In this document: positions 2,345 through 52,023 of the stretch, in pieces
Numbering within the stretch: position 1 is the stretch's first letter
Layout: each line of letters starts with the position of its first letter
Assembly: GCF_013122565.1 (NCBI RefSeq)
Contig: NZ_CP053258.1
DNA from: Escherichia coli
GTDB taxonomy: Bacteria > Pseudomonadota > Gammaproteobacteria > Enterobacterales > Enterobacteriaceae
Direction: 5' to 3' (one strand)
DNA: 64,000 nucleotides
The notes under the pieces: generated by a model
Database searches by the model: none
What the model saw: the letters and a program-made list of their open reading frames with translations, nothing else
Told to the model about the DNA's origin: nothing
Position numbers and translations under genes: made by a program

Positions 2345-4936
2345 ATGCATCAATCTGGTTCTGTTTCTCTTTGTCGTTCCGCAATATCTGTTCTGGTGGC
2401 TACAGCGTTATATTCACCCATAGCATTGGCATCAACAGTTGAGTATGGTGAGACAGTTGATGGTGTTGTCCTGGAAAAAGATATCCAGCTGGTTTATGGG
2501 ACCGCCAATAATACGAAAATCAATCCTGGCGGAGAACAGCATATTAAAGAATTTGGTATAAGTAGTAATACTGAAATTAACGGCGGGTATCAGTACATTG
2601 AAATGAATGGCACCGCAGAATACTCCGTATTAAATGATGGTTATCAAATTGTTCAAATGGGTGGCGCGGCAAACCAGACTACCCTCAATAATGGTGTGCT
2701 ACAGGTTTATGGCGCAGCGAATGATCCCACGATTAAAGGCGGGCGCTTAATCGTTGAAAAAGATGGGATTACCGTCCTTGCCGCTATCGAAAAGGGAGGA
2801 TTACTGGAGGTTAAAGAGGGGGGGTTAGCGATTGCGGTAGATCAGAAAGCCGGCGGTGCTATTAAAACAACCACGCGGGCCATGGAGGTATTCGGAACAA
2901 ACCGTCTCGGTCAGTTCGATATCAAGAATGGTATTGCTAACAATATGCTGTTGGAAAACGGCGGAAGTTTGCGAGTTGAAGAAAATGACTTCGCTTATAA
3001 TACTACTGTAGATAGTGGCGGCTTACTGGAGGTTATGGATGGCGGGACTGCAACTGGCGTTGATAAAAAAGCAGGCGGAAAATTAATTGTCTCAACGAAT
3101 GCGCTGGAAGTGAGTGGTACAAACAGTAAAGGCCAATTTAGTATAAAAGATGGTGTGTCAAAAAATTATGAACTGGACGATGGTTCCGGGCTCATTGTTA
3201 TGGAGGACACGCAGGCCATTGATACTATCCTTGATGAGCATGCCACTATGCAATCGCTGGGAAAGGATACTGGTACGAGAGTGCAGGCAAATGCGGTATA
3301 TGATCTGGGTCGATCAGATCAGAATGGAAGTATCACGTATTCCTCTAAAGCCATCTCTGAAAATATGGTTATCAACAATGGCCGCGCTAATGTCTGGGCA
3401 GGCACAATGGTTAACGTTTCAGTCAGAGGGAATGATGGCATTCTTGAGGTCATGAAGCCGCAAATAAATTATGCACCCGCTATGTTGGTGGGTAGTGTCG
3501 TGGTTTCTGAGGGCGCTTCTTTAAGAACGCATGGTGCCGTGGATACCAGCAAAGCGGATGTTTCGCTCGAAAATAGCTCATGGACCATCATTGCCGATAT
3601 CACTACGACGAACCAAAACACCCGCCTCAATTTAGCCAACCTTGCGATGTCTGGCGCAAATGTGATTATGATGGATGAGCCAGTGACTCGTTCATCTGTG
3701 ACGGCAAGTGCGGAAAATTTCACTACGTTGACCACCAATACCCTGTCGGGAAACGGCAATTTTTATATGCGTACCGATATGGCTAATCATCAGAGCGATC
3801 AGCTCAACGTCACCGGACAGGCAACAGGTGATTTCAAAATATTCGTGACGGACACCGGTGCCAGCCCGGCAGCAGGAGATAGCCTTACACTGGTAACAAC
3901 GGGCGGCGGTGATGCTGCATTTACGTTGGGCAATGCCGGAGGCGTTGTTGATATCGGTACGTATGAATATACCTTGCTGGATAATGGCAATCATAGCTGG
4001 AGTCTGGCAGAGAATCGCGCGCAAATTACCCCTTCAACCACTGATGTGCTAAATATGGCGGCAGCACAACCGCTGGTATTTGATGCAGAACTGGACACCG
4101 TGCGTGAGCGTCTTGGTAGCGTAAAAGGCGTTAGTTACGATACGGCGATGTGGAGTTCGGCAATTAACACCCGCAACAACGTGACCACTGATGCGGGCGC
4201 TGGTTTTGAGCAAACATTGACGGGCCTGACGCTCGGTATCGATAGCCGTTTCTCCCGTGAAGAAAGCAGTACAATTCGCGGCTTGTTCTTTGGTTACTCT
4301 CATTCTGATATTGGTTTTGATCGCGGCGGCAAAGGCAATGTCGATAGCTATACCCTGGGTGCTTATGCCGGTTGGGAGCATCAGAACGGTGCCTATGTTG
4401 ATGGGGTGGTGAAAGTTGACCGTTTTGCCAACACCATCCATGGCAAGATGAGTAATGGGGCAACAGCGTTTGGCGATTACAATAGTAACGGCGCGGGTGC
4501 TCATGTTGAGAGCGGGTTCCGTTGGGTTGACGGATTGTGGAGTGTTAGACCCTATCTGGCCTTTACCGGCTTTACCACAGATGGTCAGGACTACACGTTA
4601 TCAAACGGCATGCGCGCGGACGTGGGAAATACCCGGATATTACGCGCTGAAGCGGGAACGGCGGTAAGCTATCACATGGACCTGCAAAACGGTACGACGC
4701 TGGAACCCTGGCTGAAAGCCGCCGTGCGTCAGGAATACGCCGATTCTAACCAGGTGAAAGTTAATGACGATGGCAAATTTAATAATGATGTGGCTGGAAC
4801 CAGTGGCGTTTATCAGGCTGGGATAAGGTCATCGTTTACCCCGACGTTAAGCGGTCATTTGTCAGTCAGCTATGGCAATGGCGCAGGGGTAGAATCACCG
4901 TGGAATACTCAGGCGGGTGTGGTCTGGTCGTTCTGA
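2345..4936 (+). CDS. yejO: Adhesin-like autotransporter (type Va secretion), apparently intact, 863 aa
   Basis: N-terminal signal peptide, repetitive Gly/Thr/Asn-rich passenger region, C-terminal beta-barrel translocator ending in …AGVVWSF; located next to tRNA-Pro and narP. Confidence 0.8.
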   Translation: MHQSGSVSLCRSAISVLVATALYSPIALASTVEYGETVDGVVLEKDIQLVYGTANNTKINPGGEQHIKEFGISSNTEINGGYQYIEMNGTAEYSVLNDGYQIVQMGGAANQTTLNNGVLQVYGAANDPTIKGGRLIVEKDGITVLAAIEKGGLLEVKEGGLAIAVDQKAGGAIKTTTRAMEVFGTNRLGQFDIKNGIANNMLLENGGSLRVEENDFAYNTTVDSGGLLEVMDGGTATGVDKKAGGKLIVSTNALEVSGTNSKGQFSIKDGVSKNYELDDGSGLIVMEDTQAIDTILDEHATMQSLGKDTGTRVQANAVYDLGRSDQNGSITYSSKAISENMVINNGRANVWAGTMVNVSVRGNDGILEVMKPQINYAPAMLVGSVVVSEGASLRTHGAVDTSKADVSLENSSWTIIADITTTNQNTRLNLANLAMSGANVIMMDEPVTRSSVTASAENFTTLTTNTLSGNGNFYMRTDMANHQSDQLNVTGQATGDFKIFVTDTGASPAAGDSLTLVTTGGGDAAFTLGNAGGVVDIGTYEYTLLDNGNHSWSLAENRAQITPSTTDVLNMAAAQPLVFDAELDTVRERLGSVKGVSYDTAMWSSAINTRNNVTTDAGAGFEQTLTGLTLGIDSRFSREESSTIRGLFFGYSHSDIGFDRGGKGNVDSYTLGAYAGWEHQNGAYVDGVVKVDRFANTIHGKMSNGATAFGDYNSNGAGAHVESGFRWVDGLWSVRPYLAFTGFTTDGQDYTLSNGMRADVGNTRILRAEAGTAVSYHMDLQNGTTLEPWLKAAVRQEYADSNQVKVNDDGKFNNDVAGTSGVYQAGIRSSFTPTLSGHLSVSYGNGAGVESPWNTQAGVVWSF

Positions 4937-5000
4937 TAACAGAAAATAAACAGGCTGTGATGTGTCGCGGTCTGTTTATCGAATTAAATGCAGATATAAA

Positions 5001-5030
5001 AAAACCAACCGTAAAGGTTGGTTTTTTTTG
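5001..5030. terminator. Bidirectional intrinsic terminator (serves yejO on + and tRNA-Pro on -)
   Basis: Hairpin aaccaacc-gtaaa-ggttggtt flanked by an A-run upstream and a T-run downstream. Confidence 0.65.
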
Positions 5031-5037
5031 GGATTTT

Positions 5038-5114
5038 TGGTCGGCACGAGAGGATTTGAACCTCCGACCCCCGACACCCCATGACGGTGCGCTACCAGGC
5101 TGCGCTACGTGCCG
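5038..5114 (-). tRNA. proL: tRNA-Pro
   Basis: 77-nt sequence on the minus strand reading CGGCACGTAGCGCAGCCTGGTAGCGCACCGTCATGGGGTGTCGGGGGTCGGAGGTTCAAATCCTCTCGTGCCGACCA, with a paired acceptor stem, T-loop GGTTCAAATCC and encoded CCA. Confidence 0.85.
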
Positions 5115-5188
5115 ACTCGTGGCTGTTAATACTACCGTTTTCCACACCGATTGCAAGTAAGATATTTTGCTAACTGATTTATAATTAA

Positions 5189-6949
5189 TCAGTTAGCGAT
5201 AAAACGCTTCTCGTCTGTCAGTACTTGCAATAACAAACTTAACTGTGGTTTTTCATCTTTCACTCTTTCACCACGTAAGTTGTAAGTACGGTATTTACCG
5301 TTATTGTTCAGCACCAGCGTCTTTTTCGGGGTGGTAATTGCCAGCGTATCGTTATCCGCGGCGGTAACCCAGTAATGACGGCGTTGAGGGTTGAACAAAT
5401 CCTGACCTTGCGAATATTCGCTGGCAGGTGTGCTGACATGTAGCAGGCGTTGCATCAGCGTCGTCATCAGATCGGTATGATCAGTCAGAGCATTAATACG
5501 CTGCGCCGGCGTGCCTGGCCAGTGAATCACTAATGGTACCTGCAGATGACCGTGGGACCAGTCAAAGGTTTCTTCCTCTTCGCTCAGCGGAATACCCCGA
5601 CCGGCAGTGATAATCACCACCGTATTGTCCAGTTTGCCAGAATCACGCAGTGCATTGAGCACGCGGTTGATCTGGTCATCGACATTGCCTGCCGCCCGGC
5701 TATATTTCCGTGAAAATGCCTGCTGATTGCTGTCGTCAATGTTAGTGCCATTGAAAGAGACCCACGAGAACCAGCGGTTATCTTCTTGTGCGTAGCGGCC
5801 CAGCCAGTTGATCCACTGCGTGGCGGTCTGCTCGTCGGATTGGGTGCGTACGCTCGGCATCGAGAAATCTGACAACAATGCCTGGCGATACAGCGGGCTG
5901 GTAAAGCCATCTGACGAGAATAACCCCAGCTGATAGCCTTGCTGATTAAGCGCAGTAATTAACGCCGCAGGGGTACGGGTCGACAGAATGCCGTCCATAT
6001 AGCTCGGCGAGATGCCATAGAACAGGCCAAAGATGCCGTTGTCTGTAGTGTTGCCGGAGCTCATATGGCGCGTGAACGAAATATTTTGCTCAGCAAAACC
6101 TGCCAGCGCAGGCATCTGCTTCTCGAAGCGTGAGTAGTTCAGGCCATCGACAGTAATCAACAGCACATTCTGCCCAGTGCCCATATCGCGATAGCGCAGT
6201 TCGCTTAACGGATACTGAACGGAAACGGCGTCTGGATTACCTTGCTCAATAAGACGGCGTTGATACTCCTGCGCATCAAGCAGGCCATGCTTCTCAAGAA
6301 AACGTCGCGCCGTCATCGGGTACGAAAGCGGCAGGTTAGCGCGCTGCATGGTGATCGGGCGATAGAAGTTGGCATCGGCCCAGATATACACCACATGCGA
6401 GGCGATAAAGGCGATAAATAAGAATGCGGCCAGCGGGCGCGCGAAGCGTCGACGACGCGTCAGGCTGCGCAGCTTTTGCCAGCTCCACGTCGCAAACACC
6501 AGTTCAAGCAATAAAATAACCGGCACGCTGATGAACATCAGCTGCCAGTCGCGCGCCATCTCATTTTCGTCTGGGTTGATAACCAGTTGCCAGACGATGG
6601 GATTAAGATGGAGATGGAAACGAGTAAAGACTTCGCTATCGATCAGTAATAGCGTCATTCCCGCCGTTGCCAGAATGACGGACAAAAACCTCATCAGCCT
6701 CTGGGAGCCGACGATAAAGGTCAGCGGGAAGAGGATTAGCAAGTAGGTGGCAAACACCAGGAAGCTGAAATGGCCGATAATGCTTACGTAGGAATAAATG
6801 CGACCAGCAAGCGTGGTCGGCCAGTCGGCGATAAACAGGTAACGGCTGCCAATGACGAGCGAAAGCAGAATATTGAACAGTGCAAACCAGTGCCCCCAAC
6901 TGACCATCTGGGAGACTTTTTCACGGTAGCGCTGACGATGAGTTACCAT
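5189..6949 (-). CDS. yejM: Inner-membrane sulfatase-fold protein YejM/PbgA (regulator of LPS/cardiolipin homeostasis)
   Basis: 586-aa ORF with five N-terminal transmembrane helices and a periplasmic alkaline-phosphatase/sulfatase-like domain; conserved position. Confidence 0.9.
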   Translation of the reverse strand: MVTHRQRYREKVSQMVSWGHWFALFNILLSLVIGSRYLFIADWPTTLAGRIYSYVSIIGHFSFLVFATYLLILFPLTFIVGSQRLMRFLSVILATAGMTLLLIDSEVFTRFHLHLNPIVWQLVINPDENEMARDWQLMFISVPVILLLELVFATWSWQKLRSLTRRRRFARPLAAFLFIAFIASHVVYIWADANFYRPITMQRANLPLSYPMTARRFLEKHGLLDAQEYQRRLIEQGNPDAVSVQYPLSELRYRDMGTGQNVLLITVDGLNYSRFEKQMPALAGFAEQNISFTRHMSSGNTTDNGIFGLFYGISPSYMDGILSTRTPAALITALNQQGYQLGLFSSDGFTSPLYRQALLSDFSMPSVRTQSDEQTATQWINWLGRYAQEDNRWFSWVSFNGTNIDDSNQQAFSRKYSRAAGNVDDQINRVLNALRDSGKLDNTVVIITAGRGIPLSEEEETFDWSHGHLQVPLVIHWPGTPAQRINALTDHTDLMTTLMQRLLHVSTPASEYSQGQDLFNPQRRHYWVTAADNDTLAITTPKKTLVLNNNGKYRTYNLRGERVKDEKPQLSLLLQVLTDEKRFIAN

Positions 6950-9431: not shown

Positions 9432-11072
9432 ATGAGGAAACTAAAAAGGGGATTCTTATTGGCTGGGGTATTAACGGCACTTTCTCTAAGCGCTTATGCT
9501 GACAGAAATATGAATAAGATCCCGCATATCAATCTGTCGAATCCATCCGTCGAACCAGTTAGTGAGAGAATAATCCAAACAGATATTGTTGTTATTGGCG
9601 GTGGGCTTTCTGGCATGTCCGCAGGGTTGACTGCAGTACAGGGCGGAGCCAAAGTTGTTATTTTTGAAAAACTACCAAGCCTTGGAGGGGCAGGCGTTTA
9701 TCCTGAAGGCAGTTTAGGCATTGGCACCCTTATGCAAAAAAAAGAGGGGAAAGGTGCCACGCTGAATCAAGCCTTTGGTAAGGCGATCGATTTCCATCAC
9801 TGGCGAGCCAATGCTAGTGCATTGCACGCATTAATGAAAAACTCAGGCGAAACCATTGATTGGGTTGCCAGTAATGGCGTTGAGTTTACGACCTTAAAAA
9901 CCACCATTTATCCTCAGTCAGATTCATTATGGACCTGGCATATGTATAAGCATAATGGTGCATCTGTTACTAAAAGCTTTTACAAGAAGATCCTTGATGG
10001 AGGTGGGCAAATCTACACCGAAACTCCTGTTAAGAAGATTCTTCGCGACAAACAAAGCGGTGATGTCGTTGGCGTCGAAGCGGTTAATAGCGTAACAGGG
10101 GAAAAAATCATTGCCTATGGTAAGGGTGTGATTGTGGCGACCGGTGGTTTTGCCAACAACCGTGACATGATTGAAAAATACATCACCGATGTGAATCAGA
10201 AAAACATGGTGCCGGTCAAACTACGTGGCCCCCTGATTGATGGACGCGAAGGCGATGGTATCAAAATGGGGCAAGACATTGGCGCTGATACTGCCGGGAT
10301 GCAAACCATTGCTGGCAATAGCCCATATGTCGATCAAGACCCTCCTATCCGTCAGTTTAATGGCGCGGATTACCAAAAACAGGCCAGAACGTCATTAAGC
10401 CAGCCATTCCTGTGGATTAACCGACAAGGCGAGCGTTTCTTTGATGAGTCACTCGGTTCCAGTTTTACCCTCGTTTATAACGCTATCACCATGAATGGCG
10501 GAGTCATGTATTCTGTCTGGGATGATGCAATGCGCCAGAAGATGGTTAACGAAGGGCCGGTTACACCGTTTAACGCCATCGTGTTGCCTGGGCAGCCGAT
10601 GAAGGCGCTGGATCAGGCGATCGAAATCGGCATGAAAGAAGGGTGGTTATTTAAAGGTGAAACGTTGGACGATCTGGCAAAACAGATCAATGTTCCTGCA
10701 GACAATCTGAAAGCGACGATTGCGAAAGTAAACAAGTATACGGATGAAGGTTTCGATCCTGACTGGGGGCGCAAGAAAGAGCATCTGTTTAAATTTCAGG
10801 ATAAAGGACCGTATTACGCCGTGAAAGGTATTCGGGCTTATTTCCTGACGCTGGGTGGTTTGAAAATGAACAGCGATCTGCAGGTCTACGATACCAATGA
10901 GAAGATTATCCCAGGTCTGTATGTTGTCGGGCAGGATATGGGCGGTCTGTATGACAGCTCCTATGATTTGGTACTTGAAGGATCGGCTTCTGGCTTTGCG
11001 TTGACGTCGGGACGTATGGCAGCGAAACATATTATAAGCACCAGAGTGCAGGCACAGGGAGGAGGCAAATGA
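9432..11072 (+). CDS. Periplasmic FAD-dependent flavoprotein reductase, fumarate-reductase/flavocytochrome-c family (substrate unknown)
   Basis: 546-aa ORF; signal peptide MRKLKRGFLLAGVLTALSLSAYA; dinucleotide-binding fold VVIGGGLSGMSAG; C-terminal FAD-binding motif of the FrdA/SdhA family (…GLYVVGQDMGG…); its stop overlaps the next start (ATGA). Confidence 0.85.
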   Translation: MRKLKRGFLLAGVLTALSLSAYADRNMNKIPHINLSNPSVEPVSERIIQTDIVVIGGGLSGMSAGLTAVQGGAKVVIFEKLPSLGGAGVYPEGSLGIGTLMQKKEGKGATLNQAFGKAIDFHHWRANASALHALMKNSGETIDWVASNGVEFTTLKTTIYPQSDSLWTWHMYKHNGASVTKSFYKKILDGGGQIYTETPVKKILRDKQSGDVVGVEAVNSVTGEKIIAYGKGVIVATGGFANNRDMIEKYITDVNQKNMVPVKLRGPLIDGREGDGIKMGQDIGADTAGMQTIAGNSPYVDQDPPIRQFNGADYQKQARTSLSQPFLWINRQGERFFDESLGSSFTLVYNAITMNGGVMYSVWDDAMRQKMVNEGPVTPFNAIVLPGQPMKALDQAIEIGMKEGWLFKGETLDDLAKQINVPADNLKATIAKVNKYTDEGFDPDWGRKKEHLFKFQDKGPYYAVKGIRAYFLTLGGLKMNSDLQVYDTNEKIIPGLYVVGQDMGGLYDSSYDLVLEGSASGFALTSGRMAAKHIISTRVQAQGGGK

Positions 11073-11479
11073 GTAAGCTATTGAAGAACATTGTCACAAT
11101 CATTCTTGCTGGCGTAATGTGCACCGTTATCGGTATGGTTTCTGCCAGTGCACAAGAGATTGTCGGCATGAAAATGCACAAGACCATTGGTCTGGAATGT
11201 AATAACTGCCATGTTGATGATGTTAAAGCCAACAAGAATATGACGCCAACGTGCGTTAGCTGCCATGCGCCTGGTGAGCGTTATTATCATGGTAAGAAGG
11301 ATTCAGAAGGTAACTCAGTGTTAAAAGAGTATCCGGAGTCGGGTAAAACACGAGTTGCGTCTTTCCATGACTCTCATGGCGGGGAAATTCGCTGTACGGT
11401 ATGCCATACGTCACATGAGAAGGAACCACAGCCACTCTATTGCAACAACTGCCATCAGTTTGATGTGAAGATTAAGTAG
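11069..11479 (+). CDS. Small periplasmic tetraheme cytochrome c
   Basis: 136-aa ORF with N-terminal signal/anchor and four CxxCH motifs (CNNCH, CVSCH, CTVCH, CNNCH); strong GGAGG ribosome-binding site; translationally coupled to the flavoprotein gene. Confidence 0.8.
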   Translation: MSKLLKNIVTIILAGVMCTVIGMVSASAQEIVGMKMHKTIGLECNNCHVDDVKANKNMTPTCVSCHAPGERYYHGKKDSEGNSVLKEYPESGKTRVASFHDSHGGEIRCTVCHTSHEKEPQPLYCNNCHQFDVKIK

Positions 11480-32946: not shown

Positions 32947-34638
32947 ATGAAAACGCTGCTGATTATTGACGCTAATCTCGGTCAGGCACGCGCCTATATG
33001 GCGAAGACCCTGCTGGGCGCGGCGGCGCGAAAAGCAAAACTGGAAATCATCGACAATCCGAACGACGCTGAAATGGCGATTGTTCTCGGTGATTCCATCC
33101 CGAACGACAGCGCGCTGAACGGTAAAAATGTCTGGCTGGGCGATATTTCCCGGGCAGTTGCGCACCCTGAGCTGTTCCTGAGCGAAGCCAAAGGCCATGC
33201 GAAACCTTACACTGCGCCGGTCGCTGCGACAGCACCGGTTGCCGCCAGCGGTCCGAAACGCGTAGTTGCGGTGACTGCTTGCCCGACTGGCGTAGCACAC
33301 ACCTTTATGGCGGCTGAAGCCATTGAAACCGAAGCGAAAAAACGTGGCTGGTGGGTGAAAGTTGAAACCCGTGGTTCTGTTGGCGCGGGTAATGCAATCA
33401 CTCCAGAAGAAGTAGCCGCAGCGGATCTGGTGATTGTGGCGGCAGATATCGAAGTGGATCTGGCGAAATTTGCTGGTAAACCGATGTATCGTACCTCTAC
33501 CGGTCTGGCGCTGAAGAAAACCGCGCAGGAACTGGATAAAGCGGTTGCTGAAGCAACGCCGTATGAACCGGCGGGCAAAGCTCAAACGGCGACCTCTGAA
33601 GGTAAGAAAGAGAGTGCAGGCGCATACCGTCACTTGCTGACGGGCGTCTCTTACATGCTGCCGATGGTCGTTGCAGGTGGTCTGTGTATCGCGCTTTCTT
33701 TTGCTTTTGGTATCGAAGCGTTTAAAGAGCCGGGTACGTTGGCAGCGGCGCTGATGCAGATTGGTGGTGGTTCAGCCTTTGCGCTGATGGTGCCGGTACT
33801 GGCAGGTTACATTGCCTTCTCCATTGCCGATCGTCCGGGTCTCACGCCGGGTCTGATTGGCGGTATGCTGGCGGTCAGCACCGGTTCTGGCTTCATTGGC
33901 GGTATTATTGCGGGCTTCCTGGCTGGTTACATTGCGAAGTTAATCAGTACGCAACTGAAACTGCCACAGAGTATGGAGGCGCTGAAACCGATCCTGATCA
34001 TTCCGCTAATTTCCAGTCTGGTGGTCGGTCTGGCGATGATCTACCTGATCGGTAAACCGGTTGCTGGCATTCTCGAAGGGTTGACTCACTGGCTGCAGAC
34101 CATGGGGACTGCGAATGCGGTTCTGCTGGGGGCGATCCTCGGTGGCATGATGTGTACTGACATGGGCGGTCCGGTAAATAAAGCAGCGTACGCATTCGGT
34201 GTGGGTCTGCTGAGTACTCAAACCTATGGCCCGATGGCGGCGATTATGGCGGCAGGTATGGTGCCACCGCTGGCAATGGGTCTGGCAACAATGGTGGCGC
34301 GTCGCAAATTTGACAAAGCGCAGCAGGAAGGTGGCAAAGCCGCTCTGGTTCTTGGTCTGTGCTTTATTTCGGAAGGTGCAATTCCGTTTGCTGCTCGTGA
34401 TCCGATGCGTGTGCTGCCGTGCTGTATCGTGGGTGGGGCGCTGACTGGCGCAATCTCAATGGCGATTGGTGCGAAACTGATGGCACCGCACGGTGGTCTG
34501 TTTGTTCTACTGATCCCTGGCGCTATTACGCCTGTATTGGGTTACCTGGTAGCAATTATTGCCGGTACGCTGGTGGCGGGTTTGGCCTATGCCTTCCTGA
34601 AACGTCCGGAAGTGGACGCAGTAGCGAAAGCAGCGTAA
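32947..34638 (+). CDS. fruA: Fructose PTS permease IIB'BC component
   Basis: 563-aa ORF with duplicated IIB domains (CPTGVAHT) and an IIC membrane domain. Confidence 0.9.
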   Translation: MKTLLIIDANLGQARAYMAKTLLGAAARKAKLEIIDNPNDAEMAIVLGDSIPNDSALNGKNVWLGDISRAVAHPELFLSEAKGHAKPYTAPVAATAPVAASGPKRVVAVTACPTGVAHTFMAAEAIETEAKKRGWWVKVETRGSVGAGNAITPEEVAAADLVIVAADIEVDLAKFAGKPMYRTSTGLALKKTAQELDKAVAEATPYEPAGKAQTATSEGKKESAGAYRHLLTGVSYMLPMVVAGGLCIALSFAFGIEAFKEPGTLAAALMQIGGGSAFALMVPVLAGYIAFSIADRPGLTPGLIGGMLAVSTGSGFIGGIIAGFLAGYIAKLISTQLKLPQSMEALKPILIIPLISSLVVGLAMIYLIGKPVAGILEGLTHWLQTMGTANAVLLGAILGGMMCTDMGGPVNKAAYAFGVGLLSTQTYGPMAAIMAAGMVPPLAMGLATMVARRKFDKAQQEGGKAALVLGLCFISEGAIPFAARDPMRVLPCCIVGGALTGAISMAIGAKLMAPHGGLFVLLIPGAITPVLGYLVAIIAGTLVAGLAYAFLKRPEVDAVAKAA

Positions 34639-34649
34639 TAAAAGGTGTG

Positions 34650-34680
34650 TTACAGGGCAGAAATTTCCTGCCCTGTATCA
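34650..34680 (+). terminator. Putative terminator downstream of fruA
   Basis: Hairpin acagggcag-aaatttc-ctgccctgt immediately after the fruA stop; weak T-tract. Confidence 0.45.
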
Positions 34681-34946
34681 TTGGATGAGCGCAAAGGGAA
34701 TGACCGGCTTATGAATGTAATTTTATGAATTTAAATGGTTTTATCTTTCAGTAGAAACCTGAAACGTTCATCAAACACTAAGGTTATTTCCTCAAGGGCA
34801 GATTATTTTCTGCCCTTTTTTATTGTTCCTGTTCTGTGCATCCCGTCACAAATTCCTCGCTTTTGTAATTCAGGCATTTAATCGCATTTTGTGAGCCTGC
34901 TCAAATCTGCCCATTTTGCCTCTCTGGCGGTAATTTACTTTACGTA

Positions 34947-34994
34947 AAACATGCATACTATGAGCACATGTTTAAATATGAACACATGTTTAAA
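34947..34994. promoter_or_regulatory. Repeat-containing putative operator in the psuK promoter region
   Basis: Two direct copies of CACATGTTTAAA (34965-34976 and 34983-34994) plus an inverted half-site AAACATG (34947-34953), 70-115 bp upstream of psuK. Confidence 0.4.
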
Positions 34995-35061
34995 CCGTCT
35001 TTGCAGTATCTATATTCTTGTGGATTGACAGGGTTGGTAATTTTTTACCAGAGGACGTGCT

Positions 35062-36003
35062 ATGCGCGAAAAGGATTATGTCGTAATTATAGGTTCGGCG
35101 AATATTGATGTCGCCGGATATTCACATGAATCATTAAATTATGCGGATTCAAATCCAGGTAAAATAAAATTTACGCCTGGTGGAGTCGGGCGCAATATTG
35201 CACAAAACCTGGCGTTGCTGGGGAATAAAGCCTGGCTACTTAGCGCAGTAGGCAGTGATTTTTATGGTCAATCGTTGCTAACGCAAACCAATCAATCTGG
35301 TGTTTATGTCGATAAATGCCTGATTGTGCCGGGAGAAAATACGTCGAGCTATTTATCATTACTCGATAATACCGGTGAAATGCTGGTTGCTATAAATGAC
35401 ATGAATATTAGCAACGCTATTACAGCTGAATATCTCGCACAGCACCGTGAATTTATTCAGAGGGCAAAGGTCATTGTCGCGGACTGTAATATCAGTGAAG
35501 AGGCACTGGCATGGATTCTGGATAATGCCGCCAACGTACCCGTATTTGTCGATCCTGTTTCCGCGTGGAAATGTGTCAAAGTGCGCGACCGTCTAAATCA
35601 GATCCACACTCTCAAACCAAACCGCCTTGAAGCGGAAACCCTGAGTGGGATTGCGCTGTCAGGGCGTGCAGATGTGGCAAAAGTTGCTGCCTGGTTCCAT
35701 CAACATGGCCTGAACCGACTGGTATTGAGCATGGGCGGCGACGGCGTTTATTACAGCGATATCAGCGGTGAAAGTGGCTGGTCTGCGCCGATCAAAACCA
35801 ATGTCATTAATGTTACCGGAGCGGGCGATGCCATGATGGCGGGGCTTGCTTCGTGTTGGGTAGACGGAATGCCGTTTGCCGAATCTGTTCGTTTCGCACA
35901 GGGATGTTCGTCAATGGCGCTCTCCTGTGAATACACCAATAACCCCGATTTATCGATTGCCAACGTTATATCGTTAGTGGAGAACGCAGAATGTCTGAAT
36001 TAA
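35062..36003 (+). CDS. psuK: Pseudouridine kinase (PfkB family)
   Basis: 313-aa ribokinase-like ORF (…TGAGDAMMAGL…); overlaps psuG by 13 nt. Confidence 0.85.
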   Translation: MREKDYVVIIGSANIDVAGYSHESLNYADSNPGKIKFTPGGVGRNIAQNLALLGNKAWLLSAVGSDFYGQSLLTQTNQSGVYVDKCLIVPGENTSSYLSLLDNTGEMLVAINDMNISNAITAEYLAQHREFIQRAKVIVADCNISEEALAWILDNAANVPVFVDPVSAWKCVKVRDRLNQIHTLKPNRLEAETLSGIALSGRADVAKVAAWFHQHGLNRLVLSMGGDGVYYSDISGESGWSAPIKTNVINVTGAGDAMMAGLASCWVDGMPFAESVRFAQGCSSMALSCEYTNNPDLSIANVISLVENAECLN

Positions 36004-36929
36004 AAATTTCCCCTGAATTATTACAAATTTCCCCGGAAGTGCAGGACGCTTTAAAAAACAAAAAACCGGTTGTGGCGCTGGAATCGACCATTATTTCTCA
36101 CGGGATGCCGTTCCCACAAAATGCCCAGACCGCAATTGAAGTTGAAGAAACTATTCGTAAACAGGGCGCAGTACCTGCCACTATCGCCATTATTGGTGGC
36201 GTGATGAAAGTGGGTTTAAGCAAAGAAGAAATTGAATTACTGGGTCGTGAAGGGCATAACGTGACTAAAGTTAGTCGTCGCGATTTACCTTTTGTCGTTG
36301 CCGCCGGAAAAAATGGCGCAACCACCGTGGCTTCAACGATGATTATTGCGGCGCTTGCCGGAATTAAAGTATTTGCCACCGGCGGAATTGGTGGTGTTCA
36401 TCGCGGGGCGGAACATACCTTCGATATTTCTGCCGATTTGCAAGAACTGGCAAATACTAATGTCACCGTTGTTTGTGCCGGGGCGAAATCTATTCTCGAT
36501 TTAGGCTTAACTACCGAATATTTAGAAACTTTCGGTGTACCGCTAATTGGCTATCAGACCAAAGCGTTGCCTGCGTTTTTCTGCCGCACCAGCCCGTTTG
36601 ACGTCAGCATTCGTCTCGACAGCGCCAGTGAAATTGCCCGTGCAATGGCGGTGAAATGGCAAAGCGGGCTGAACGGTGGCCTCGTGGTAGCGAACCCGAT
36701 CCCGGAACAGTTTGCGATGCCGGAACAGACCATTAACGCTGCGATTGATCAGGCAGTGGCAGAAGCCGAAGAACAGGGAGTCATTGGTAAAGAAAGTACG
36801 CCATTCCTGCTGGCGCGCGTTGCTGAGCTGACCGGCGGTGACAGCCTGAAATCCAACATCCAGCTGGTGTTCAACAACGCCATTCTGGCGAGCGAAATTG
36901 CCAAAGAATATCAGCGTCTCGCGGGTTAA
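35991..36929 (+). CDS. psuG: Pseudouridine-5'-phosphate glycosidase
   Basis: 312-aa ORF of the IndA/PsuG family; conserved position. Confidence 0.85.
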   Translation: MSELKISPELLQISPEVQDALKNKKPVVALESTIISHGMPFPQNAQTAIEVEETIRKQGAVPATIAIIGGVMKVGLSKEEIELLGREGHNVTKVSRRDLPFVVAAGKNGATTVASTMIIAALAGIKVFATGGIGGVHRGAEHTFDISADLQELANTNVTVVCAGAKSILDLGLTTEYLETFGVPLIGYQTKALPAFFCRTSPFDVSIRLDSASEIARAMAVKWQSGLNGGLVVANPIPEQFAMPEQTINAAIDQAVAEAEEQGVIGKESTPFLLARVAELTGGDSLKSNIQLVFNNAILASEIAKEYQRLAG

Positions 36930-37022
36930 TTTCTGACGGGCAGAAAGCCGTCGCCCGTACTCATCAAGCATACCAAAACCTGGCGCTGACGCCGGGTTTA
37001 CTGGCATGAAGGGAAAATCATT

Positions 37023-38273
37023 ATGGATATAATGAGAAGTGTTGTGGGGATGGTGGTGTTACTGGCAATAGCATTTCTGTTGTCAGTGAATAAAAAGAGC
37101 ATCAGTTTGCGCACGGTTGGAGCCGCACTGCTGCTGCAAATCGCTATTGGTGGCATCATGCTCTACTTCCCACCGGGAAAATGGGCAGTAGAACAGGCGG
37201 CATTAGGCGTTCATAAAGTGATGTCTTACAGTGATGCCGGTAGCGCCTTTATTTTTGGTTCGCTGGTTGGGCCGAAAATGGATGTCCTGTTTGACGGTGC
37301 GGGTTTTATCTTCGCCTTTCGCGTACTTCCGGCGATTATCTTCGTCACTGCGCTCATTAGTCTGCTGTACTACATTGGCGTGATGGGGCTGCTGATTCGC
37401 ATCCTTGGCAGCATTTTCCAGAAAGCCCTCAACATCAGCAAAATCGAATCTTTTGTCGCAGTCACCACTATTTTCCTCGGGCAAAATGAGATCCCGGCGA
37501 TCGTTAAACCGTTTATCGATCGCATGAATCGCAACGAGTTGTTTACCGCAATTTGTAGCGGGATGGCGTCCATTGCTGGTTCGATGATGATTGGTTATGC
37601 CGGAATGGGCGTACCAATTGACTACCTGTTAGCGGCATCGCTGATGGCGATCCCCGGCGGTATTTTGTTTGCACGTATTCTTAGCCCGGCAACCGAGCCT
37701 TCGCAGGTCACATTTGAAAATCTGTCGTTCAGCGAAACGCCGCCAAAAAGCTTTATCGAAGCGGCGGCGAGCGGTGCGATGACCGGGCTGAAAATCGCCG
37801 CTGGTGTGGCGACGGTGGTCATGGCGTTTGTCGCAATTATTGCGCTGATCAACGGCATTATCGGCGGAATTGGCGGCTGGTTTGGTTTTGCCAATGCCTC
37901 TCTGGAAAGTATTTTTGGCTATGTGCTGGCACCGCTGGCGTGGATCATGGGTGTGGACTGGAGTGATGCCAATCTTGCGGGTAGCCTGATTGGGCAGAAA
38001 CTGGCGATTAACGAATTCGTCGCTTACCTGAGTTTCTCCCCATACCTGCAAACGGGCGGCACGCTGGAAGTGAAAACCATTGCGATTATCTCCTTTGCGC
38101 TTTGTGGTTTTGCTAACTTTGGTTCTATCGGTGTTGTCGTTGGCGCATTTTCGGCTATTTCGCCAAAACGTGCTCCGGAAATCGCTCAGCTTGGTTTACG
38201 GGCGCTGGCAGCAGCAACGCTTTCCAACCTGATGAGCGCGACTATTGCCGGGTTCTTTATTGGTTTAGCTTGA
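37023..38273 (+). CDS. psuT: NupC-family (CNT) nucleoside transporter PsuT (YeiM)
   Basis: 416-aa polytopic membrane protein; about 90% identical to the nupX product in this window. Confidence 0.85.
   Translation: MDIMRSVVGMVVLLAIAFLLSVNKKSISLRTVGAALLLQIAIGGIMLYFPPGKWAVEQAALGVHKVMSYSDAGSAFIFGSLVGPKMDVLFDGAGFIFAFRVLPAIIFVTALISLLYYIGVMGLLIRILGSIFQKALNISKIESFVAVTTIFLGQNEIPAIVKPFIDRMNRNELFTAICSGMASIAGSMMIGYAGMGVPIDYLLAASLMAIPGGILFARILSPATEPSQVTFENLSFSETPPKSFIEAAASGAMTGLKIAAGVATVVMAFVAIIALINGIIGGIGGWFGFANASLESIFGYVLAPLAWIMGVDWSDANLAGSLIGQKLAINEFVAYLSFSPYLQTGGTLEVKTIAIISFALCGFANFGSIGVVVGAFSAISPKRAPEIAQLGLRALAAATLSNLMSATIAGFFIGLA
37023..38273 (+). repeat. Dispersed duplication, copy A (psuT coding region; leader motif at 36933-36956)
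   Basis: Near-identical at the protein level (about 90%) to copy B, with shared 5'-leader motifs. Confidence 0.7.
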
Positions 38274-41515: not shown

Positions 41516-42604
41516 TTACACCATTGGCACTAATGAAAGCGCGTTATCGGCAGACAGGGTAGGGTTGTTTAAGCTGCCGCTGGCGCGTGAAATTGCCGCG
41601 CAGGCCATCGCAAAACGGGCGCTGTCACGGAAATTGTTTCCCTCCAGAAAGCTATATACCAGGCCCGCCATAAAACCATCGTCAGCACCAAAACTGTCTA
41701 CTGTCGTATGCGCTGGTGCGGTCAGCAAAAATTGTTCTCCATCCTTTTCGCTGCAATAAACTGACTCATCGGGCAAATAAACAAACAGTTGCTGAACACC
41801 TTGCTGATGCAACGCATTCACTGCGGCATTACGGTCAACATCGCTGGTGATCGCCTGTCCCCATAAAATTTCCAGCTCCGGTAAAGTGGGTTTCAGGGTA
41901 TGAATATGCGCCAGCCAGTGTTTGATTTTGCCCGCTTTGAATTCTGAAACGGTATCGACAAACACCGGGATCTCATCAGCGAGGGTAAAGACCCATTCCA
42001 GCGCCTCGGCTGTCAGGTTGCAATCAGCCAGTACCACGCCCGCATGACGAAGTAAATCGCGCGACCCGTTCAGTAGTTGCGGTGTCAACTGTTCCAGCAG
42101 ATGGGTATCGTTAATCGCCAGCACGGTTTGATCGTCTCGATTGGCAATTGCCAGATACGTCGATGTGCTTTGACCATGCAAACGAACGCAGCCGGAGACA
42201 TTCACGCCGGCACGGCGCGTTTCTTCCAGGAGCATTTCGCCATAAAAGTCATCGCCAATCACTGAAAGCAAATGGACGTCGCGGCCTAACAGCGCCAGAT
42301 TGTGGGCGATATTGCGTCCAACGCCGCCCGCCGAGCAATGAATTGTACCGGGATGAGAAGCCGCTTGCGGGTAACGGATATCCGCCATCCCGCGAATATC
42401 CATATTGATTGTCCCCACCACTACGCAGTATTCCTGCTCGGTGAGAATGTAACCTTTGCCTTTAATCCGGCCTTTGCGCATTAAATCCATAATATGCGCC
42501 GCAACGCGCGAACGACTGATTTGCAGCATGTCCGCAATTTCGTTCTGCTGAATCAGCGGGTTACGCCGTAAAATTGCAAGGATCTCCTTTTCCCGGTTAT
42601 TCAT
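41516..42604 (-). CDS. yeiI: PfkB-family sugar/nucleoside kinase with N-terminal HTH domain (YeiI)
   Basis: 362-aa ORF; N-terminal winged-helix (…QNEIADMLQISRSRVAAHI…) fused to a ribokinase-like domain; paralog of psuK. Confidence 0.85.
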   Translation of the reverse strand: MNNREKEILAILRRNPLIQQNEIADMLQISRSRVAAHIMDLMRKGRIKGKGYILTEQEYCVVVGTINMDIRGMADIRYPQAASHPGTIHCSAGGVGRNIAHNLALLGRDVHLLSVIGDDFYGEMLLEETRRAGVNVSGCVRLHGQSTSTYLAIANRDDQTVLAINDTHLLEQLTPQLLNGSRDLLRHAGVVLADCNLTAEALEWVFTLADEIPVFVDTVSEFKAGKIKHWLAHIHTLKPTLPELEILWGQAITSDVDRNAAVNALHQQGVQQLFVYLPDESVYCSEKDGEQFLLTAPAHTTVDSFGADDGFMAGLVYSFLEGNNFRDSARFAMACAAISRASGSLNNPTLSADNALSLVPMV

Positions 42605-51814: not shown

Positions 51815-52023
51815 TTACCGCTCCTTTTTATCTGCAATGATTATAATAAGGTTTCGTAGCGGCTGATGTATCTAACAATCACAGTTGTGAATGTTAAATA
51901 AAAGATAAAAAAGTGCTTTTTTTGATACCCTGAAATAATAAGATACTAAAAGTACCATTTTTGATACCTTTGCCAGGATATAACGAATAACGAGTTTCAA
52001 CGTTGAAGGAATCATTTACAAAA

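Follow-up and report, generated by a model that had tools for sequence, protein, structure and literature searches.

Two conserved palindromic sites on the predicted psuKGT promoter of Escherichia coli and the winged-helix PfkB protein YeiI as their candidate regulator

The described regulators closest to the arrangement proposed here are NagC and Mlc of the ROK family, in which a winged helix-turn-helix (wHTH) is fused to a homologue of the pathway kinase used as a ligand sensor, and whose palindromic operators overlap a CRP-dependent catabolic promoter. In our model the first of these traits would be shared by the Escherichia coli protein YeiI and the second by the promoter of the pseudouridine operon psuKGT. 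NagC and Mlc, however, have the ROK/ASKHA fold whereas YeiI has that of PfkB/ribokinase and gives no ROK match in Pfam or NCBIfam; inducer and operator sequence differ as well, and the role of YeiI is a prediction. The enzyme-repressors BirA, NadR and PutA are comparable to the single-copy HTH-PsuK proteins of Yersinia, Serratia, Pasteurella and Shewanella, each of which appears to be a self-repressing enzyme, but they are of another enzyme class and combine both roles in one protein, while in E. coli these roles appear to be split between the paralogues PsuK and YeiI. The CytR/DeoR regulon (deoP2, udp, cdd, nupG) resembles psuK in serving nucleoside uptake and catabolism under CRP together with a specific repressor, and the two CRP-like sites of psuK, about 52-55 bp apart, add to the likeness. 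CytR nevertheless binds between tandem CRP sites and contacts CRP, whereas at psuK both CRP-like sites precede the conserved pair, which is located at +1 and +18, and the alignment contains no conserved CytR-type motif between the CRP-like sites in other genera. Lastly, the RutR box of pyrimidine catabolism, TTGACCAnnTGGTCAA, shares with the psuK sites a 16-bp 7-2-7 layout and the bases A4, C6, A7, T10, G11 and T13. It differs in that the psuK sites never have C at position 5 or G at position 12, and sites of the psuK type accompany wHTH-PfkB genes in organisms and settings that have nothing to do with rut.

The openly searchable literature describes neither a regulator of psuKGT nor a function of YeiI, in agreement with an earlier note on this DNA that considered psuKG regulation not well defined. 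YeiI was called uncharacterised in 2022 (PMC9061257) and in 2025 (PMC12506659), and its NCBIfam name (June 2026) is 'sugar kinase'.

The locus was analysed within a 64-kb stretch of E. coli DNA, hereafter the window. The fruBKA genes end with fruA at 34638 and psuK starts at 35062. The 423-bp spacer between them has a GC content of 0.36-0.41, against about 0.56 within fruA, and corresponds to the AT-rich region of about 420 bp reported in the earlier note. Downstream follow psuK, psuG and psuT, then yeiL on the opposite strand. The operon comprises:

35062 to 38273, plus strand: psuKGT operon, the proposed target (RefSeq annotation of a matching K-12-type record)
35062 to 36003, plus strand: psuK
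35991 to 36929, plus strand: psuG
37023 to 38273, plus strand: psuT

A pattern search located the 12-mer CACATGTTTAAA at 34965-34976 and 34983-34994, 18 bp from start to start, and these are its only exact copies in the window. The heptamer AAACATG lies inverted at 34947-34953, separated from the first copy by 11 nt, so that both the spaced direct copies and the upstream inverted element are present as first described. In a repeat search the copies belong to an 18-bp unit arranged head to tail, TATGAGCACATGTTTAAA (34959-76) followed by TATGAACACATGTTTAAA (34977-94), which agree at 17 of 18 positions and form one of just three families of close direct repeats in the window. By itself the heptamer is not above chance, with 10 occurrences in 64 kb against 14 expected, and it is notable solely through its clustering with the two copies of CACATGTTTAAA. 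Since an exact 12-mer recurring within 30 bp is expected about 0.1 times per 64 kb (uniform composition, hand arithmetic), the repeat taken on its own is mildly improbable. The decisive evidence that it is not random is, in our reading of the sequences, its conservation, and we hold with high confidence that the repeat is real and functional.

Conservation was followed through a scan of one genome per species, which yielded 11 orthologous psuK loci: three from Escherichia species, one from E. albertii, one from a Raoultella metagenome-assembled genome, two from Buttiauxella and four from Citrobacter. About 210 nt upstream of psuK were aligned for 12 regions from four genera. Read from the 5' end, the invariant blocks are TTGTGA-N6-TCAnATCT, then TTTAC, then AAAC..GC.TA..AT, and the last two blocks are those that form the two repeat units in E. 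coli. There are no insertions or deletions between the blocks, and the flanks diverge. The last two blocks correspond to two imperfect palindromes with the consensus tGAACAY/RTGTTCa (the slash marks the centre), about 16 bp each and with centres 18 bp apart, which we call O1 and O2 and list together with the heptamer:

34947 to 34953, plus strand: AAACATG, in the spacer between the predicted -35 and -10 elements at about -21 to -15, resembling one half-site (AAACAY)
34960 to 34975, no strand assigned: O1, imperfect palindrome with left half ATGAGCAC and right half ATGTTTAA, centre at 34967/68 on the predicted start, 20.6 bits
34978 to 34993, no strand assigned: O2, left half ATGAACAC and right half ATGTTTAA, centre at 34985/86 (about +18), 18 bp from that of O1, 22.2 bits

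The O1 core positions A..CA..TG.T are unchanged in 12/12 aligned promoters, and all 14 Enterobacteriaceae psuK promoters retain the cores of both sites and the 18 bp between their centres. The exact direct repeat, on the other hand, is confined to one Escherichia lineage. Outside it the second block reads GAACATGTGCTCTAAT and not GAACACATGTTTAAAC, which abolishes the direct repeat; O2 is of this GAACATGTGCTCTAAT type in Citrobacter, Buttiauxella, Raoultella, E. albertii and a second E. coli haplotype. The self-complementary core RAACAY/RTGYTY nonetheless survives in every aligned sequence, and the O1 of Raoultella includes a perfect 10-bp palindrome, AACACGTGTT. Because the GAACATGTGCTCTAAT-type block breaks the direct repeat while the palindromic core persists, the functional units are two palindromes of about 16 bp rather than a pair of direct repeats. 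Consequently, conservation in orthologous promoters, which the earlier note had asked about, holds for the palindromic cores and their spacing and fails for the exact repeat. Its suggestion of a dimeric or tandem regulator at psuKG is likewise upheld by the footprinting and the position on the core promoter, with the exception of the anatomy it had assumed, a direct repeat of CATGTTT.

A matrix built from 13 distinct sites carries 16.9 bits and is self-complementary, that is, dyad symmetry is present. The matrix was scanned over the window and the fetched loci. In the 64-kb window only O1 and O2 exceed 15 bits; the next-best match (14.3 bits, at 10777) falls inside a 546-aa open reading frame, and no copy was found at the promoters of yeiL, rihB, nupX, yeiI or nfo. 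Within the species, a 76-bp core is identical in 2749 complete E. coli genomes, and the sampled natural variants fall between or outside the operator cores, the -35 and the -10. From these sequence data O1 and O2 are very probably protein-binding operators on the core promoter. Bound dimers would be 18 bp apart (about 1.7 helical turns) and so on different faces of the DNA, an arrangement that is unusual for cooperative tandem binding.

The inverted AAACATG does not seem to take part in this geometry in the way the earlier note supposed. It scores 2.5 bits with the matrix, against 20.6 for O1 and 22.2 for O2, and has no matching second half; AAAC..GC is kept in Enterobacteriaceae and missing from the Yersinia and Serratia spacers. 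We therefore rejected it as a third full operator given its low score and lack of conservation outside Enterobacteriaceae, and regard it as a putative half-site at most.

The invariant blocks upstream of O1 fit a promoter and its activator sites, with the following elements:

34835 to 34850, no strand assigned: distal CRP-like site TGTGCATCCCGTCACA, which matches 9/10 core positions and precedes the proximal site by 55 bp
34890 to 34905, no strand assigned: proximal CRP-like site TGTGAGCCTGCTCAAA, centre at 34897/98, 9/10 match to TGTGA-N6-TCACA
34934 to 34939, plus strand: predicted -35 TTTACT, with TTTAC invariant in the alignment
34956 to 34961, plus strand: predicted -10 TACTAT, with TAnnAT invariant in the alignment, 16-bp spacer from the -35

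Transcription is predicted to start at about 34967-34969 (about 2,259,390 of NC_000913.3, minus strand). In the proximal CRP-like site TTGTGA and TCAnATCT are unchanged across the aligned genera, and in 13/13 Enterobacteriaceae loci scored its centre precedes that of O1 by exactly 70 bp; a hand count gave the same 70 bp in the second E. coli haplotype (locus L025). Class I CRP sites centre near -61.5, -71.5 or a further helical repeat, and the psuK site, at about -70.5 from the inferred start, has a class I-like position. CRP, which the earlier note had listed among the possible binders of the repeats, thus appears not to be the protein on O1 and O2 but to have its own separate, conserved site 70 bp upstream. 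Outside Enterobacteriaceae, 70-72 bp separate the CRP-like site from the distal palindrome in Xenorhabdus and Yersinia, the distal element of Serratia is 72 bp from its CRP-like site by hand count, as in Yersinia, and the distance to O1 in Pasteurella is 60 bp, one helical turn less. The distal CRP-like site matches at 9/10 positions in Escherichia; E. albertii shares this level with TGTGTTACACATCACA, and there the distal and proximal sites are 52 bp apart. The match is weaker (8/10) in Citrobacter and Raoultella. With O1 on the predicted +1, O2 near +18 and the heptamer in the -35/-10 spacer, the arrangement is, on the predicted start, repressor geometry.

The promoter assignment gains independent support from a known adaptive mutation. 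A recurrent SNP between psuK and fruA, 2257444 A to C (NC_000913.2), was found during mouse-gut colonisation (PMC7518454, PMC9509342, PMC10340439), three populations kept in long-term stationary phase acquired an A to C 'psuKp' allele (PMC7858067), and the SNP was assigned to the psuK promoter by its authors (PMC7518454, PMC9509342, PMC7858067). Four srlR mutations listed in the same tables served to calibrate the coordinates, and an offset of 1978 fits 4/4; with it, the SNP maps to 2259422 of NC_000913.3 (reference base A), 126 nt upstream of the psuK ATG, which is position 34936 of the window. On the sense strand it is a T to G change that turns TTTACT into TTGACT, and would be a classic -35 up-mutation.

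The matrix, derived from Enterobacteriaceae only, was then applied to independent upstream regions. Just ahead of the psu operon, Yersinia, Serratia, Pasteurella, Shewanella, Aliivibrio and a Burkholderiaceae genome each carry a pair of sites 18-19 bp apart. Their centres relative to the ATG, with those of Salmonella, are:

Salmonella (psuK): -97 and -79
Yersinia, Serratia and Pasteurella: -27 and -9, O2 ending 1-2 nt from the start codon in Yersinia and Pasteurella
Shewanella: -52 and -33
Aliivibrio: -41 and -22
Burkholderiaceae genome: -27 and -8

The observed pair score was reached by 0/2000 shuffles in each of Salmonella, Yersinia, Serratia and Shewanella and by 6/2000 in Pasteurella, the five taxa covered by these statistics. 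The upstream site of Aliivibrio scores just -0.7 bits, and those of the Burkholderiaceae genome, at -2.7 and 3.7 bits, are palindromes recognised by eye. No proximal pair was found in Xenorhabdus; its one palindrome is the distal one, at a distance of 70 bp from a CRP-like site. The operators lie 70 nt further from the ATG in psuK-type than in HTH-psuK-type genes.

Gene linkage points to a candidate for the protein that binds the pair. The proposed binder is encoded at:

41516 to 42604, minus strand: yeiI, N-terminal winged HTH and a PfkB domain 40% identical to PsuK

In E. albertii, Citrobacter, Buttiauxella, Raoultella and Salmonella, psuT and yeiI are convergent and directly adjacent, with nfo coming next. 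In seven other taxa (Yersinia, Serratia, Xenorhabdus, Pasteurella, Shewanella, Aliivibrio and the Burkholderiaceae genome) the operon opens with a wHTH-PfkB gene in the psuK position, giving the order HTH-PfkB/psuG(/psuT); the encoded proteins are 43-51% identical to YeiI. A regulator gene of this kind is therefore adjacent or first in 16 of the 21 fetched psu loci, nine with yeiI beside psuT and seven with the fused gene first. In E. coli itself yeiI lies further off, 3.2 kb beyond psuT in the window and 2.1 kb in L025, and the sequences of the other four Escherichia loci (L001, L004-L006) stop short of it. The yeiL-rihB-nupX segment is restricted to E. coli and its closest relatives, and tblastn with YeiL gave matches in L001, L004-L006 and L025, all of them E. 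coli-type loci, and nothing in E. albertii or the other site-bearing loci. Because linkage fails for YeiL and holds for the wHTH-PfkB gene, the latter is the sole regulator-type gene found consistently with the motif. YeiL, another binder put forward in the earlier note, is accordingly disfavoured, since its linkage to the operon does not extend beyond E. coli and near relatives, whereas the candidacy of YeiI gains support from linkage across genera. We consider it probable, on these comparative grounds, that YeiI binds O1 and O2. It may also remain an active kinase with an unrelated role. The scan of the 64-kb window gave no matrix match near yeiI or nfo, and so YeiI would not be autoregulated through this motif in E. 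coli. We also considered the alleles of the two genes as evidence of co-adaptation. Both yeiI and psuK have two deep alleles in E. coli, and the minority alleles occur in about 2057 genomes for yeiI and about 1200 for psuK; as these counts differ, the genes are not strictly co-inherited, and the argument was dropped.

The protein features of YeiI agree with such a role. Its N-terminal domain matches HTH_24 (E = 7e-11). The motif ISRS.VA.HIM.L..KG.IKGKGY is nearly invariant across wHTH-PfkB proteins, as is the recognition-helix region in 27 sequences with overall identities down to 40%. The AlphaFold2 model (pLDDT 90.5) comprises a three-helix winged HTH, a flexible linker with low confidence at residues 52-54, and a PsuK-like kinase domain that superposes on PsuK with a TM score of 0.95. 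A fold search with this model returned only PsuK and ribokinases, and no solved wHTH-PfkB protein. The residues of the PsuK crystal structure (PMC9061257) were mapped onto the YeiI alignment. In PsuK numbering, YeiI retains the equivalents of the ribose contacts N14 and D16, the three base-reading residues S30, N143 and K170, and Y97, N112, K185 and the catalytic D256. At the positions of M114 and G255 it has T and D, respectively, and the second replacement turns the anion-hole motif GAGD into GADD. With these contacts conserved, the putative sensor domain may be able to bind pseudouridine. The single-copy HTH-PsuK proteins keep the PsuK-like motifs INDM, KPNRLEAE and GAGD, and the Yersinia kinase domain alone scores 458 bits with the NCBIfam PsuK model, against 440 for the whole protein with the YeiI model.

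Among the alternatives, the one that survives best keeps O1 and O2 as genuine operators and assigns them to another factor, either YeiL or a TetR-type protein such as RutR, leaving YeiI as a kinase only. The binding of YeiI to the pair is, after all, a prediction from sequence. FNR-type sites have a 5-N4-5 layout, and the psuK site can be read that way (TGAAC-N4-GTTCA); yeiL moreover adjoins psuT in E. coli. Against YeiL, no yeiL gene lies near the psu genes of E. albertii, Citrobacter, Buttiauxella, Raoultella, Salmonella or any of the distant site-bearing loci. RutR is attractive as its effector is uracil, a product of the pseudouridine pathway, and the 16-bp 7-2-7 layout with the six invariant positions matches its consensus; yet position 5 is A or G and never C in the 13 distinct sites, unlike that consensus, and the literature search found no paper linking RutR to yeiC. 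In seven taxa the sites lie within about 50 bp of the start of the wHTH-PfkB gene, and no other regulator gene is consistently near the sites in those taxa. Binding by another such factor is consequently unlikely, a good deal less probable than binding by YeiI. The sites of RutR, FabR, ArgR, PurR, KdgR and LexA and the marbox, compared by eye, were set aside for misfits in spacing or key positions; the RutR box fails the matrix at positions 5 and 12.

Much less probable is that the conserved sequence acts in RNA, the right half of O1 pairing with the left half of O2 over 9 bp, so that the psuK transcript would carry a 5'-terminal hairpin controlling its stability or translation. RNAalifold does predict the hairpin in 8 species, nearly all sequences being able to form it, and the E. 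coli leader folds somewhat better than its shuffles (z = -2.0). However, adjacent copies of one palindrome must pair with each other, and the hairpin is therefore an automatic by-product of the two sites. The covariation term is unfavourable (+0.67), with a double change at a single pair. The left half of O1 is equally conserved although it reaches no further than the predicted start and is not part of the hairpin, Rfam returned just two hits, both below threshold and on the other strand, within the spacer but away from the repeat, and in Yersinia and Pasteurella O2 comes almost up to the start codon. Least probable of all is a recent 18-bp duplication that is neutral or serves only a second promoter, TTTAAA-16-TATATT (34989-35016, with TTTAAA as -35) and no dedicated regulator: while this is the sole promoter-like match of the consensus scan (9/12) and the 17/18 tandem unit is limited to one Escherichia lineage, the TATATT region shows no conservation beyond Escherichia, in contrast to the palindromic cores, which are kept across families, one such match compares with 1.2 expected from shuffles, and the adaptive SNP improves the upstream -35, TTTACT, and not TTTAAA.

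Returning to a wHTH-PfkB repressor, and alongside the observed sequence anatomy, its conservation and the gene linkage, we infer where transcription starts, which protein is bound, that it represses, and what the inducer is. In the proposed mechanism a dimer of the wHTH-PfkB protein, YeiI in E. coli, would sit on each operator and block RNA polymerase, with its PsuK-like kinase domain serving as a pseudouridine sensor. In the PsuK dimer, pseudouridine triggers closure of the small domains (PMC9061257). In YeiI the HTH is attached just upstream of the closing small domain, and this position suggests how an allosteric signal could free the DNA: pseudouridine or its 5'-phosphate would close the small domains of the dimer, displace the HTH domains and free the promoter, which would additionally require cAMP-CRP. 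The full model, an operator pair on a CRP-dependent sigma-70 psuKGT promoter with repression by YeiI, seems to us the probable one, and for relief of that repression by pseudouridine we see the case as evenly balanced.

The distribution of the genes suggests how the system may have arisen. The ancestral state would be a single autoregulated HTH-psuK-psuG(-psuT) operon, a form that would persist in Yersinia, Serratia, Pasteurella, Shewanella and Aliivibrio. In Enterobacteriaceae a duplication would have given rise to the enzyme PsuK, with loss of the HTH, and to the regulator YeiI, with the change of GAGD to GADD, while the ancestral tandem operators stayed with the psu operon. Two weak observations appear to agree with this history. 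One is the 70-nt shift between operators and ATG; the other is that in four loci of Citrobacter and Raoultella the tblastn alignment of YeiI continues past the psuK ATG for some 20 codons of upstream sequence, with 6-7 identities, which is suggestive only of a psuK leader that would be a relic of HTH coding sequence. Rather tentatively, and with somewhat less than even confidence, YeiI could be the founding example of a class of transcription factors with the PfkB/ribokinase fold, a pseudouridine-sensing repressor derived from a duplicated bifunctional HTH-PsuK. In that reading PsuK would be the copy turned purely enzymatic, its HTH having decayed into today's 5' leader, and YeiI the copy turned into a sensor with impaired catalysis.

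Pseudouridine is the most abundant modified nucleoside from RNA turnover, and no description of how E. coli controls its catabolism was found in the literature searched. The present analysis offers a model of psuKGT at base resolution, with a CRP site, a promoter and two operators, and nominates a function for the uncharacterised E. coli gene yeiI; this assignment is a well-supported comparative-genomics prediction. The SNP in the -35 is one of the most reproducible adaptive mutations in gut-colonisation and stationary-phase experiments with E. coli. If the model is true, this change partly bypasses the control of pseudouridine scavenging by YeiI and CRP, which would explain its repeated selection in the mouse gut and in long-term stationary phase. 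The model is also of practical relevance to pseudouridine-production strains in which psuK and psuG are manipulated. Finally, if true, the PsuK/YeiI pair would provide a clean case of an enzyme-regulator fusion split into enzyme and sensor paralogues.

Among complete genomes of E. coli, psuK and yeiI (encoding the winged-HTH, PfkB kinase-like protein) are each present as two deep haplotypes, represented here by the window and by E. coli EC08 (L025):

Window 35062-36003: psuK, window-type allele
Window 41516-42604: yeiI, window-type allele
EC08 locus 4686-5627: psuK, alternative allele
EC08 locus 10001-11089: yeiI, alternative allele

The window-type psuK was found in 4217 complete genomes and the other type in about 1200, the two sharing 81% nucleotide identity, and the yeiI types, 80% identical in nucleotide sequence, occur in about 3360 and about 2057 genomes, respectively. 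In the strain that carries the divergent psuK and yeiI, identity to the window is 96-98% for fruA, yeiL, rihB and nfo. The promoter of the minority psuK type is E. albertii-like and retains both predicted operators, O1 and O2. Since the minority alleles of psuK and yeiI are unequal in frequency, their co-inheritance is not strict.

Disruptions of this promoter and of its associated genes were also encountered. In E. coli L1_E925 (L023, 2531-3300), an IS1 element has inserted naturally just 5' of the -10 hexamer (~window 34955), and the -10 hexamer, O1, O2 and the beginning of psuK are deleted. Further genomes carry IS1 within psuK or yeiI (hits H34 and H45). The spacer match of the laboratory strain E. 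coli ER1709 (H12, NZ_CP030240.1 4389537-4389596) is limited to the final 60 bp (window 35002-35061) and falls under a fruB annotation, which suggests that the psuK promoter and operators were removed by deletion or rearrangement in this strain.

The fruA-psuK spacer contains several additional elements:

Window 34652-34676: GC-rich hairpin, GGGCAGA...TCTGCCC
Window 34760-34770: Cra-like sequence TGAAACGTTCA, 3' of fruA
Window 34794-34827: second, related GC-rich hairpin, also GGGCAGA...TCTGCCC, about 160 nt past the fruA stop codon
Window 34835-34850: second CRP-like site TGTGCATCCCGTCACA, 9/10 match, 55 bp upstream of the conserved CRP-like site
Window 35035-35050: conserved stem or palindrome TGGTAATTTTTTACCA, directly 5' of the psuK Shine-Dalgarno sequence

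Only the second hairpin, and not the first, has a terminator-like score and a T-run on its 3' side. The sequence separating the two hairpins may be a 3' UTR or a small RNA. The 55-bp spacing of the two CRP-like sites is reminiscent of nucleoside promoters under CytR control, which have CRP sites in tandem. Between the two CRP-like sites, GCATTT occurs twice in E. coli; this motif is not conserved in Citrobacter. TGAAACGTTCA is similar to the left half-site of the Cra (FruR) operator, the half that is well conserved; K-12 has TTCAAACGTTCA in its place, and the Cra-like sequence is therefore strain-specific. Elsewhere in the window (51909-51968), AAAAGTGCTTTTTTTGATACC and AAAAGTACCATTTTTGATACC form a close direct repeat, 39 bp apart, bearing no relation to the psuK sites.

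TGGTAATTTTTTACCA is replaced by TGGCAAGTTAATTGCCA in sequences of the Citrobacter group, for example those of Citrobacter sp. On2M and a Raoultella MAG, and by TGGCATTTTAATGCCA in Salmonella. These differences are compensatory, with pairing or symmetry preserved, and the element could be an RNA hairpin of the leader or a further DNA site. Upstream of the fused HTH-psuK gene, Yersinia, Serratia and Xenorhabdus share another block, CTTACGATC(A/G)(C/T)(C/T)TTC(C/T)C(A/C)CAA, with the distal palindrome on one side of it and the proximal sites on the other:

L015 7905-7945, with equivalents in L016 and L017 (loci of Yersinia, Serratia and Xenorhabdus): conserved CTTACGATC block, about 100 nt 5' of the HTH-psuK start

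Under ciprofloxacin, PsuG ranked with the proteins most dependent on recA in 4 of 6 E. coli strains, and PsuK did so in 1 of 6, with log2 fold changes as low as -6 in recA mutants (PMC11039860). No LexA box was seen in the psuK promoter. One possibility is that recA-dependent PsuG and PsuK reflect induction by pseudouridine released through damage-induced RNA turnover or prophage lysis.
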